Of a stretch of DNA of 64,000 nt, positions 16,331 to 27,893 are shown in pieces; the stretch's first letter is position 1, and every line of letters begins with the position of its first letter. Below the pieces are notes generated by a model. It had not been told where the DNA came from. It worked only from the letters and a program-made list of their open reading frames with translations, and did no database searches. The DNA is taken from the sequence record KM190144. One strand, written 5' to 3'. Origin of the DNA: Escherichia phage Av-05. Made by a program: the position numbers and the translations under genes.

Positions 16331-17161
16331 ATGACAAGTATTTTACACACGACAGGTATTTTACCACACTATCAGAAGGAATATTCTTTCCCTGATTTAT
16401 CTGGGGATATGTTGCAAATATACGACAAAGTGCAAGGCGAAGTGTCGGATCTACAATTTAGTTCAGACCCTGATGATGAGCAAGAGTTTGATAAACAGAT
16501 TTGTCGTGTAGAAAACGAGCTTATAGAGCTACAATCATTAGCCAAATCAACAGATATTGAAGACTTAAGGCGATATGTTGAGAATCTTGAAAATTTAGTG
16601 TTCGGGCTTTCGCAAGCTATTATAAACATTGGTGAAATTGCTAAAATTGCCTCTGACAAGTTGCCAGACAACACAGAAGATCTTGAAGAGGCGTTGCAGA
16701 ATATCTGCTATGAAGGAAGTTCTGCTCTCGGTTGTGAATGTGATCTAGGAAATGCTCTTGAAGAACGTGGGTGGAGCCTAACCCAAAAAACTTTTGTTTA
16801 TCGTATTATTGGTGGTGAGTTCCCACGACTCATACAACTTAATGCCCTTTTTGGAAACAGCCAGAGTGATAATATTGCATTAGGTATTGAAGGTTGGTTC
16901 TGTTTAAGGGGTAAAGAATTAACATTTTGTTGTGGCGATGATGTGTTAATTCTCAACGCTTCTAAACCTGGTGTTGGAATAACAACAAAATTAAATGGTA
17001 AATCCACCAGTTTTCATACCTCTGATTTGTCAGCTATTTTTATGGATATATTTGATCCTTCAGAAGATGAAATTCTCATGTATGAAATGACCAGCGGAAA
17101 AAGGTATGATATTTTGTCGTGGAGAAATATTTTCGGTAAGAAGAGAAAGTCTGTAACGTGA
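16331..17161 (+). CDS. Hypothetical protein (276 aa)
   Basis: ORF track. Confidence 0.45.
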   Translation: MTSILHTTGILPHYQKEYSFPDLSGDMLQIYDKVQGEVSDLQFSSDPDDEQEFDKQICRVENELIELQSLAKSTDIEDLRRYVENLENLVFGLSQAIINIGEIAKIASDKLPDNTEDLEEALQNICYEGSSALGCECDLGNALEERGWSLTQKTFVYRIIGGEFPRLIQLNALFGNSQSDNIALGIEGWFCLRGKELTFCCGDDVLILNASKPGVGITTKLNGKSTSFHTSDLSAIFMDIFDPSEDEILMYEMTSGKRYDILSWRNIFGKKRKSVT

Positions 17162-17415
17162 TATTTTATCATTGATATTTGTTTTCCCTGTGATATTTTT
17201 GCCACAGGGAAAGTTTCAATAACAGATATTTTCTTGATACTTTAAAGCCCTACCAGAAATTCAAATTCTGTAAATTTAGAAAACTATCACTTATAAGCGT
17301 TTCGACACAATTTTGTTATGAAATCCTTGTTTTTATATAAAAACCTGTTTTGGCATGAGTGGTAGGATCACACTCCATACTACCTTTATTCCTACAGATG
17401 AGCACCCCCATGTCC

Positions 17416-17640
17416 GAAAACTCGGTTCTCGATCGAAAATCCATTTTCCAGATCGTATTTGCTCCTTACGGAGCAAATTTTTTAGGGCTACAAATTTCAG
17501 TTCTCGATCGGTTTTTCGATTTCAAAATCGTATTTGTTTTTTCTTGCGAAAAATTTCGCACGCTCGGTTCTCGATCGAGTTTTCAAAATCGAAATCGTAT
17601 TTGCTCTATAGCGCGAAAAAATTTTTATGGGTATCGTAAT
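17416..17640. repeat. Three tandem units of about 75 bp, each with CGGTTCTCGATCG and ATCGTATTTG motifs plus a hairpin
   Basis: CGGTTCTCGATCG at about 17421, 17500, 17573; ATCGTATTTG at about 17451, 17527, 17601; the 13-mer recurs at about 27756. Confidence 0.6.
17458..17483 (+). terminator. Rho-independent terminator-like hairpin inside repeat unit A
   Basis: TTGCTCC-TTAC-GGAGCAA followed by TTTTTT. Confidence 0.5.
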
Positions 17641-18012
17641 TCTATCACACACTTAAACGCAAAGCAACATAAAAATTTTTGTTGAATGATAATCATTCTC
17701 ATTTGTAGAATGACAGACAGGGGCGGTGTCTTATCCTCCCCCGTTGACAATCGTCGCCGTAGTTTGAAGTTTATAGCCGTTCTCGGCTTATCTCTTTGTT
17801 AGACAGATATTAGCATAGTTGGTAAAGAAATCAAGCGTTAATTGCAATCTTTACGTTTCTTTACAAATTTATTTTTGACGAACTACCGGCGATCGACCTT
17901 TCAACCAGCGCCCTGGTATGTTAGCCCCGCCTTTACGCCGTGGGGATGGCGTTTCCTCTTCTGTATGTTAGGCATTATAAGCCCAATCCCTGGGCTTGTC
18001 AAACATTTTCAT

Positions 18013-18276
18013 CTATTTATTTTCTTGCCAGGTTAGGACACCTAACCAGAAATGGCAATCACCTTTCGCCCATTGTGGTATATTGCTTTCTTTCCCACCT
18101 TCTCGCGCCCAGGAATAACCGCCCGTGTAACTTTGCAATTGATAACTATCCTCGACCTTATAATCTGACAGGCTGAGAACTGTTTCTACCTTTAAGCCCG
18201 TTGCGCTCGCTACCTGGTGGATAGTTCCCCCTTGCCAGCCTAACGCGTGCATAAGGTGCAATGTGGTAGTGGTCAT
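18013..18276 (-). CDS. Hypothetical protein (87 aa)
   Basis: ORF track; GAGGA RBS 8 nt upstream of ATG. Confidence 0.4.
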   Translation of the reverse strand: MTTTTLHLMHALGWQGGTIHQVASATGLKVETVLSLSDYKVEDSYQLQSYTGGYSWAREGGKESNIPQWAKGDCHFWLGVLTWQENK

Positions 18277-18376
18277 TTTTTCTATTCCTCTGTTAGTTGG
18301 TTAGTTGTTAAAATTATATCTATAACCAGCCAGGTTAGCAAGGAAAATAAAAGAGAAAAATTTTCAAAAAATAGTA

Positions 18377-26960: not shown

Positions 26961-27837
26961 GGATTAGTTACATATGTAACTAACAACTAACGTTGCTAAA
27001 TTGTGTCCATGAATGGATGAGGAATAATATTCCTCCCAGCTATCGCTGCAATATTGTGTTGTAAAACGATTAGCTGAGAATCAGCTAACCCGTGAAACGG
27101 GCTAAATTATTCTCATTAATCCCCCGATTATTCCTCAGTAAATCACTTGTTTATCACGTTTAATCAGCCTGTTTAACAGGCCAGTAATGTGATGATCATT
27201 AACCACGATTATTGTTTGTATTATCCAGAATAAACCGCTTATCATGTTGTTATTATGTTGCCAAGTGCCTGAAATGCCAGATCAATTTGGTCACTGCGTG
27301 ATTATGATTGCGACAATAATTTGTTTGTGATTTGCATCTATTCATAACAAAATTGCTATTATGTTGCTATTCTATTGTTAAACACCCTTTTATCTTTTCC
27401 CTTGCATTTTCGTTATATTTGATTTGTTATCGTTTTCTTTCATTTTGTTTCGTTATTGAAAACAAGAATTATTATCATCTATGTGCCTTAACAGGCTGGC
27501 GGGTCTGTTAGTGGTCTGGTTGTCTGGCCTGTTATTGTTAGCTTGCTTATTGTTGTGTGGTGTATGTATCAGTTAGCTAGTACATTGTGTGGTGCGCATA
27601 ACGTGTATTATGTTAAATCAGGTGGCCCACAAGTAAGGCCGTATGTCAATAGCAATAAGTGCTGTGTGTGGTAGGACTGGCCTATCAGTGTGCCCCTTTG
27701 TTGTGTGATGCTCTCAGTGTGTGACCTGTCTGCTGTGTGCGCTGCGTCAAATCTCGAGCGGTTCTCGATCGCAATAGCTGTAAGATATTTTGTAAAGATT
27801 CGTAGTTTTTCTTGACACCCGCAATCGTCCGTCTAAC

Positions 27838-27893
27838 CCTTCAGAGATAGATCCTTCAGAGATTTATCTGGGCTTTTTACCCTTCAGAGATAG
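27838..27893. repeat. Three tandem copies of CCTTCAGAGAT(A/T)
   Basis: CCCTTCAGAGATAGAT, CCTTCAGAGATTTAT, CCCTTCAGAGATAGAT read directly. Confidence 0.55.

Follow-up and report, generated by a model that had tools for sequence, protein, structure and literature searches.

Classical iterons are sites of 17–22 bp at a spacing of ~22 bp, and at theta origins (lambda ori/O; P1, F, R6K, pSC101) several of them lie as same-orientation direct repeats with near-palindromic cores. We analysed an array of three tandem units at positions 17,416–17,640 of a 64,000-nucleotide (nt) stretch of Escherichia phage Av-05 (sequence record KM190144; this whole stretch is called the window below), which an earlier note, made from the letters alone, had described as roughly 75-bp repeats sharing a 13-mer that recurs 10 kb away. 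The array resembles theta-origin iterons in the direction of its repeats and in their near-palindromic cores, and also in its bend-prone A/T tracts, nearby AT-rich short repeats, neighbouring promoters and box sequences that covary across the units of one genome. Its lone related site, kilobases off, recalls the distant origins of R6K or the ori/crr pair of phage P4. The array differs in that its units are ~40 bp long, bipartite and 63–78 bp apart, and in that the only O-like candidate is a 141-amino-acid winged-helix protein encoded 4 kb off.

Phage multi-operator regions (lambda OR1-3, the 186 CI sites with FL and FR, Mu O1-O3) likewise combine three related sites with a long-range partner and face-to-face promoters. 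In contrast to these, the sites of the array overlap no promoter, its phage is strictly lytic, and its units are much longer and more widely spaced. The packaging sites lambda cosB (R3-I1-R2-R1) and P1/SPP1 pac share with it three repeated sites and bending within ~150–200 bp, occurrence once per genome and a link to concatemer packaging, but the array does not lie beside terminase genes and belongs to a group whose virion DNA is reported to be circularly permuted. Type III antitoxin RNAs are encoded by near-identical tandem units of 34–40 nt in variable copy number behind an upstream promoter. Pseudo-ToxI of phage phiTE, which belongs to the same subfamily, is tandemly repeated and non-coding like the array, but its 36-nt repeats are almost identical and multiply by slippage, whereas the array has three fixed, diverged and positionally orthologous units without similarity to ToxI. 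Arrays of clustered regularly interspaced short palindromic repeats (CRISPR) have near-identical repeats of 28–37 nt, unique spacers of similar length and usually cas genes. The earlier note was right to set the array apart from these: its units are 65–73% identical, the stretches between its boxes have conserved orthologues in other phages and are not unique, and no cas-like genes lie nearby.

The closest match of the window was Escherichia phage vB_EcoM_TH18 together with three partial records (94% identity), and more distant relatives were Vequintavirinae (PVP-SE1, GAP31, 4MG, KB57, Mydo, FFH2) and Phapecoctavirus. The window belongs to a Vequintavirinae-type (rV5-like) myovirus. At least 14 tRNA genes are clustered on its minus strand, and it also carries NAMPT and PRPP synthetase genes. 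The replication origin of rV5-type phages is unknown (PMC3606486), and the group packages its circularly permuted, terminally redundant DNA by a headful mechanism (PMC3475682, PMC7344957).

Three composite sites at a single locus

The array lies in region A, a gap of 850 bp without a credible gene, with the following features.

16331–17161, plus strand: gene of a 276-amino-acid protein (phrog_12959), the upstream flank of region A
17422–17463, plus strand: unit 1 (U1) composite site; box1 GGTTCTCGATCG at 17424–17435, 16-nt spacer, box2 ATCGTATTTG at 17452–17461; matrix score 51.0 bits
17497–17538, plus strand: unit 2 (U2) composite site; box1 AGTTCTCGATCG at 17499–17510, 16-nt spacer, box2 ATCGTATTTG at 17527–17536; matrix score 54.8 bits
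17564–17605, plus strand: unit 3 (U3) composite site; box1 GGTTCTCGATCG at 17566–17577, 16-nt spacer, box2 ATCGTATTTG at 17594–17603; matrix score 58.5 bits
17615–17626: GAAAAAATTTTT tract after U3, with weaker equivalents after U1 (17475–17484) and U2 (17549–17556)
18013–18276, minus strand: 87-amino-acid open reading frame (ORF), the downstream flank of region A

Both reading of the sequence and a repeat search confirmed a tandem array of three direct units. The direct copies span 17421–17483 (U1), 17496–17558 (U2) and 17563–17625 (U3) at a spacing of 75 + 67 bp, with 65% (U2) and 73% (U3) identity to U1; because this identity is too low, Tandem Repeats Finder did not report the array. Similarity between the units was concentrated in two blocks, box1 (C/A)GGTTCTCGATCG and box2 ATCGTATTTG, which are separated in all three units by exactly 16 T-rich nt, a regularity absent from the earlier note. 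Box2 was exact at 17452, 17527 and 17594 and had no other exact copy in the window. The 13-mer CGGTTCTCGATCG, which had been assigned to every unit, was exact in U1 and U3 (17423 and 17565) and at 27759, while the copy in U2 (17498) carries one mismatch. When up to two mismatches were allowed, the window had 4 matches against 0.51 expected, and none of 100 shuffles reached 4. Box1 is near-palindromic (TCTCGATCGA(G)), with a 10-bp palindrome (CTCGATCGAG) in U3, box2 has the form A(T/A)CGTATTT, and the centres of the two boxes are about two helical turns apart.

A position matrix of 42 nt was built from 23 distinct units. The three units scored 51–58 bits; the runner-up, both in the window and across all 146 kb of the PVP-SE1 genome, reached 1–2 bits. 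The array is a single-locus element with exactly three full sites per genome. Since the motif is restricted to one locus, it is neither a promoter class nor a dispersed repeat.

Conservation and concerted change of the boxes

Relatives were found by a pattern scan of IMG/VR and by sensitive BLAST against phage genomes. A single match covered at least 80% of positions 17400–17730 in 51 records, and a looser pattern added three GC-richer metagenomic lineages. The array was present in the lineage of the window, in Seunavirus, Mydovirus and Henunavirus and in three IMG/VR lineages, and in a diverged form in the rV5-type Vequintavirus FFH2; absence from related phages, which the earlier note had named as a point that would speak against the repeats, was not observed. 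Every genome carried three units in one orientation with a 16-nt T-rich spacer (consensus RnTTTTCAnTTTCnAR). The distance from U1 to U3 was 139–145 bp throughout, despite unit spacings of 75+67, 74+67, 76+67, 78+63, 65+74 and 74+71 bp.

Among six close relatives (the window, TH18 and four metagenomic contigs), box2 was invariant and box1 varied at its first base only, while the linkers and the stem of a hairpin in U1 varied. Between lineages the boxes themselves differed (CGTATT versus GGATTT in box2; TTCTCGATCG versus TACTTGAGAG), and one box variant was common to all three units of a genome. In the diverged arrays box2 reads nnGGATTTT in both FFH2 and the Erwinia Henunavirus, and box1 reads GGTACTCGATCT in FFH2 and GGnACT(C/T)GA(A/G)(A/G)G in the Erwinia phage. 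Identity within genomes was 0.94 for box1 and 0.88 for box2, versus 0.90 and 0.81 between lineages. The spacers kept positional orthology, with an identity of 0.68 between units at the same position versus 0.60 between paralogues. The A6T6 tract or hairpin after box2 was kept in the AT-rich lineages (Seunavirus, Mydovirus, Henunavirus), but L035, L049 and L084, which are richer in GC, lack it. In the same alignments two neighbouring elements of host-factor type were practically invariant.

17682–17711, plus strand: sigma-70-like promoter, TTGAAT-N18-TAGAAT, whose spacer is the Fur-box-like palindrome GAATGATAATCATTC (17684–17698)
17848–17864: GTAAA-N5-GTAAA direct repeat, reading GTAAAGAAACGTAAAGA on the minus strand, invariant in all lineages

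The boxes thus show concerted evolution, which points to sites read by a co-evolving factor. Because the host-factor-type sites are fixed while the boxes drift together, this reader is probably phage-encoded. The sequences themselves show the architecture of the array, its uniqueness, its conservation and the concerted evolution of its boxes. The array is a deeply conserved and so far undescribed cis-element; searches of the literature turned up no account of these repeats, nor of a Fur box or dif site, for this group of phages.

In Phapecoctavirus TSP7_1 the corresponding position before the Fur boxes has different AT-rich repeats (contig L002, 3590–3800). They comprise three copies of a 29-nt unit over 138 bp and a 72-nt pair 138 bp apart, and may do the same job as the array while differing from it in specificity.

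The solitary distal site and region B

The further copy of the 13-mer lies in a second large non-coding region.

27000–27860 (approximate): region B, a large non-coding stretch
27591–27618, plus strand: dif-like XerC/XerD core, GGTGCGCATAA-CGTGTA-TTATGTTAAAT
27759–27771, plus strand: distal solitary box1 (CGGTTCTCGATCG)
27783–27800: CAGATATTTTGTAAAGAT, invariant, with a GATATTT motif

This copy, which had been reported at about 27756, is real and occupies 27759–27771; no box2 follows it. The exact 13-mer was not kept in all relatives: it is lost in TH18 (GGGACTCGATCG with an indel), and PVP-SE1 has no exact box1 outside its array. When region B of the window, TH18, Seunavirus EC152 and PVP-SE1 was aligned, however, a core GGnTCTCG stood at the same position, with GG..CTCG invariant, 13–14 nt upstream of the invariant CAGATATTTTGTAAAGAT in all four lineages. 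The proposed link between the array and a site 10 kb away is thus better supported than the loss of the exact 13-mer would suggest, and the recurrence is probably functional. The distal copy is a solitary box1-like half-site and not a fourth unit. A wider similarity between regions A and B was rejected, as beyond the 13-mer there was no excess over shuffled controls.

A 2026 study that evolved EC152 reported four co-occurring intergenic single-nucleotide polymorphisms (SNPs) in 6 of 8 lines, and a P14T change in a 'transcriptional regulator' in 7 of 8 (PMC13307863). We located the SNPs at positions 4 and 23 of the EC152 record (4C>T, 23G>T), in the spacer and box2 of U1, and at 11597 and 11603 (11597C>T, 11603C>G), in region B; the regulator is phrog_639. 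By 23G>T, ATCGG becomes ATCGT, which is the consensus of the family, and the C-to-G change in region B turns ATGGT into ATCGT on the reverse strand. As the same pentamer was created independently at two loci, the changes in U1 and region B are suggestive of a shared reader.

Both 11-bp arms of the dif-like site are identical to E. coli dif (sequence taken from PMC2731167), and 26 of 28 positions match, with none expected by chance. The site is kept in TH18, and in the non-coding gap of PVP-SE1 it recurs with one mismatch and the same central region. Such a site is unexpected in a strictly lytic myovirus. The large non-coding gaps of PVP-SE1 (L018 16551–18793; 116.5–118.8 kb) and EC152 (L138 2300–3940) also hold several more Fur-box-like sequences and strong promoter-like sites. 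Beside a Fur box, the EC152 gap has in addition a stretch resembling a spacer plus box2 (TTTTCATTTCGAAACTGAAATCGAAATCGTATTC).

Proposed iteron-like sites and a possible replication origin

That the units are iteron-like sites for a sequence-specific DNA-binding protein, which would assemble on the three sites within ~141 bp, is in our judgement somewhat better than an even bet. That a protein binds, which protein this is and what the complex does are inferences, as follows. The units would be cis-acting DNA elements and not genes, each a composite recognition site of ~40 bp. A sequence-specific protein, probably encoded by the phage, would occupy all three sites and form a wrapped or bent nucleoprotein complex, and the A6T6 tracts between the sites would probably aid bending in the AT-rich lineages. 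The complex would sit in the conserved 850-bp control region immediately upstream of the Fur-box promoter, with a solitary box1-like partner ~10 kb off. It may serve as origin iterons or as a replication-coupled control point, with the neighbouring promoters providing transcriptional activation.

Among these functions we tentatively prefer the iterons of a replication origin, as a possibility that falls well short of even odds. The preference rests on the uniqueness of the element, the placement of its sites apart from promoters, the A/T tracts and upstream AT-rich repeats, the distal partner and the fact that the origin of the group is unmapped. The wider context of origin type comprises the following features, besides the dif-like site in region B.

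13156–13581, minus strand: gene of the initiator-like winged-helix protein (141 amino acids), upstream of the PRPP-synthetase and NAMPT genes and 4 kb from the array
17160–17245, plus strand: five GATATTT-type direct repeats (at 17160, 17174, 17192, 17225 and 17236), upstream of the array

As in iterons, the repeats share one orientation at one locus, being three plus-strand units in the window and equally confined in the whole PVP-SE1 genome. Candidates for AT-rich unwinding are the A6T6 tracts between units, which are missing in the GC-richer lineages, and the GATATTT repeats 180–260 bp upstream, which stand at roughly 13-mer spacing. Seunavirus, Mydovirus, Henunavirus and FFH2 each had at least three repeats of this type, spaced 12–16 bp, in the corresponding place.

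Two proteins were considered as candidate readers. The 276-amino-acid protein is always encoded directly upstream of the array and is a candidate partner only. It was found in 68 phage records, in the same genera as the CGTATT-type array, a match at the level of genera and not record by record. The winged-helix protein is weakly similar to lambda-O-like and other replication initiators (phrog_270, E = 3e-4). Its EC152 counterpart matched phrog_8102 'replication initiation protein' (1.8e-36) and also a phosphoribosyltransferase-associated winged helix-turn-helix domain of Pfam. An informal comparison with the consensus sequences of host factors (IHF, DnaA, ArgR, PurR, SlmA and sigma-E/sigma-28/sigma-54) gave no convincing match.

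Several observations weigh against iteron-like sites or an origin. The sites are ~40 bp long and 63–78 bp apart, not 17–22 bp at a phasing of ~22 bp. GC skew gave no origin signal in the window and tracked the direction of transcription only, as it does in rV5 (PMC3606486). For the 276-amino-acid protein the structure model had a predicted local distance difference test score (pLDDT) of 52, and no domain, Pfam or PDB relatives were found. The winged-helix proteins of the window and EC152 are only ~25% identical although the boxes are nearly the same, and Pfam ties the domain to phosphoribosyltransferase genes, not to replication; both proteins are candidates rather than established binders. 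The EC152 SNPs may be standing polymorphisms of the stock and not new adaptive mutations, and two of them lie within 25 nt of the contig end. The EC152 record (PP681140.1; ends of L134/L135) is linearised inside box1 of U1, where 8 nt (TACTCGAT) are missing relative to GAP31, and a standing polymorphism would explain this break as an assembly-graph bubble. Finally, the array, the Fur boxes and the promoter always follow each other in one order, and a role in transcription would account for this just as well. Clustering of GATC (Dam) sites in the array was no denser than in other 250-bp windows.

A possible regulatory array and the Fur-box promoter

In a reading almost as likely as the origin, though still doubtful, the array would consist of operators or upstream sites for a phage transcription factor that acts in an early-to-middle or physiological switch and not at an origin. 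Such a factor would control the Fur-box promoter, the face-to-face minus-strand promoters and, through the distal box1, a promoter in region B. The order of array, Fur box or boxes and promoter was constant in every lineage examined, and the Fur-box promoter always lay 50–120 bp downstream of U3. In region B a TTGACA hexamer follows the distal box1-like core after ~45 bp, and in the EC152 lines the SNPs of U1 and region B are combined with an altered predicted transcriptional regulator. The region is also dense in sites resembling those of host regulators (Fur-like, CpxR-like). More than 200 genomes of Vequintavirinae and Phapecoctavirus carry one to four copies of the conserved Fur-box-like promoter, and its palindrome GAATGATAATCATTC matches 15 of 19 positions of the E. 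coli Fur consensus. The GTAAA-N5-GTAAA repeat corresponds to the CpxR-box consensus. It immediately precedes a minus-strand promoter (in the window TTGATT-N16-TAATAT, in relatives TTGCAA-N17-TATATT) directed against the Fur-box promoter.

The position of the units fits this regulatory role less well. No sigma-70-like promoter overlaps them, and their centres lie ~135, 200 and 275 bp upstream of the predicted start of the Fur-box promoter. The distance from array to promoter ranges from 78 to ~120 bp with the number of Fur boxes, which is unusual for activators or repressors of sigma-70 promoters.

A broader and distinctly speculative proposal, to which we give a low probability, is that a strictly lytic myovirus here has a DNA-handling module like that of a plasmid, made up of the array and region B. 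A phage protein would bridge the three sites and the distal box1 and so loop across the 10-kb block of early genes, with the array as origin or pac. Host XerCD acting at the near-perfect dif site would resolve circular replication intermediates or circularise incoming terminally redundant DNA, comparable to P1 pac/loxP, and the module would be gated by Fur iron and CpxR-like envelope-stress signals.

RNA-level repeats as an alternative

The earlier note had offered iterons, small RNA genes or regulator sites as explanations. The two options at the DNA level found support, in three full sites per genome, boxes invariant beside variable linkers in close relatives, and lineage-specific box variants common to the three units. 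Small RNA genes are disfavoured, as no internal sigma-70-like promoter, no conserved hairpin or terminator and no Rfam match was found. More generally, transcribed units might act as three small RNAs, as a sponge or decoy for an RNA-binding protein or toxin, or as tandem terminators that insulate the downstream Fur-regulated transcript; we consider this improbable. In its favour is a good plus-strand structure in U1.

17457–17484, plus strand: terminator-like hairpin of U1, ATTTGCTCC-TTAC-GGAGCAAAT followed by T6

The terminator-like hairpin and T-run noticed at the end of the first unit are indeed present, with a 9-bp stem followed by T6 (-12 kcal/mol, z = -3.3). A hairpin in each unit, as had been claimed, was not found: U2 has only a weak 6-bp stem (z = -0.7) and U3 has none (z = +0.6). 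The U1 hairpin is lineage-specific, and GGAGA in five close relatives costs the stem one pair. Across relatives the RNA hairpins after box2 were not conserved: in most lineages the majority of units had z close to 0, on the plus as on the minus strand. Intrinsic terminators as a class for the array were rejected, because only U1 of the window qualifies and its structure is weaker in close relatives and not conserved. A helix between box1 and box2 was also rejected, because changes of box2 from ATCG to AACG lack compensating changes in box1. No Rfam family matched the array at gathering or permissive thresholds. In the window only tRNAs passed the gathering score, and the best scores in 17100–18350 were 13–22 bits against thresholds of 36–111.

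Minus-strand promoters do aim into the array, a perfect TTGACA-N17-TATAAT at 18002–17974 and a second read from the sequences of relatives, and the related phage phiTE carries a repeat-RNA antitoxin mimic, pseudo-ToxI (PMC3475682). That locus, however, lies elsewhere, beside tRNA and NAMPT genes, and homology with it was rejected because the map position differs. Membership of the type III antitoxin RNAs (ToxI/pseudo-ToxI) was rejected as well, as every lineage has three copies, no more and no fewer, and the units have diverged. Their 65–73% identity and orthology position by position are unlike antitoxin arrays generated by slippage.

A possible packaging site

The repeats might instead bind the small terminase subunit, so that headful packaging would start here, as at lambda cosB R1-R3 or P1/SPP1 pac. 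A unique element with three repeated sites and bend-prone A/T tracts would suit this role in a group that packages by the headful mechanism, and the EC152 GenBank record opens inside box1 of U1, with 8 nt missing. We rate packaging as quite unlikely. The large terminase gene is tens of kilobases away in PVP-SE1 and EC152, and the opening of the EC152 record is explained more simply by an assembly-graph bubble at a polymorphic site, since positions 4 and 23 of the record vary in the same study. In the window's own clade, four independent metagenomic contigs either continue across the array or have their ends in other places.

Tandem promoters or a coding sequence as alternatives

Three tandem promoters for host or phage-modified RNA polymerase, with box1 as an element of the -35 region and box2 (TATTTG / TATTTT) as the -10, are very improbable. 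The fixed 16-nt gap between conserved boxes recalls promoter geometry, and TAnnnT-like hexamers occur in box2 of several lineages. A consensus scan nevertheless found no sigma-70-like site in 17200–17681, and the hexamer 17 bp upstream of TATTTG varies (TCGAAA, TCGGTT, TCGAGT). The -10 candidate ends in G in the window and is not conserved, box2 being GGATTTT in FFH2 and the Erwinia phage, and the motif occurs nowhere else in a whole genome.

A small protein-coding gene of the PVP-SE1 gp202 type can be practically dismissed: ORFs of 94 amino acids (17355–17639) and 108 codons overlie the array, ORFs of 90–130 codons span it in many genomes and relatives annotate one (PVP-SE1 gene 202, GAP31_043A, Mydo_054), but the motifs contain no stop codon, which leaves two or even three plus-strand frames open simultaneously. 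With unit spacings such as 67, 74 and 76 bp, none of them divisible by three, the frame in which a given box is read changes from unit to unit. The long frame moves between lineages and is interrupted in 4MG, and GAP31's own annotation notes a poor ribosome-binding site for GAP31_043A. No reading frame is conserved, and the array is not protein-coding.

Other elements near the array

Two further conserved stretches lie in region A. The first transcribed bases after the Fur-box promoter keep the motif CGGTG(T/A)TTGTCTCC, and the transcript may be an iron-regulated phage small RNA. The second lies behind the perfect minus-strand promoter, and a divergent promoter region was noted further upstream of region A.

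17866–17965: conserved element of ~100–110 nt (CTACCGGCGATC...GTTAGCCCCGCCTTTACGCCGTGGGG...), directly downstream of the perfect minus-strand TTGACA-N17-TATAAT (17974–18002)
13700–13830: AT-rich divergent promoter region with short tandem repeats (periods 5, 11 and 14), between minus- and plus-strand gene blocks

The element at 17866–17965 is far more conserved than the flanking genes, with 80–91% identity into Phapecoctavirus, and is a candidate non-coding RNA. It had no Rfam match, and the alignment held only one compensatory base pair. Three partial 54-kb GenBank records of close relatives terminate at about this place.

Meaning for the phage group

Therapy and biocontrol make wide use of rV5-like phages and of relatives such as PVP-SE1 and the Klebsiella and Cronobacter phages. 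Their origin, packaging signal and temporal regulation are unmapped. The array, which some GenBank records annotate as a hypothetical ORF, offers a concrete place to seek an origin, packaging or regulatory function and the protein that reads it. Regions A and B appear to be two non-coding hubs in which a lytic phage embeds sites for host factors, namely Fur boxes, a CpxR-like box and a dif site. Should the array prove to be a local regulatory site only, the gains would be a corrected annotation and a defined target for phage engineering.

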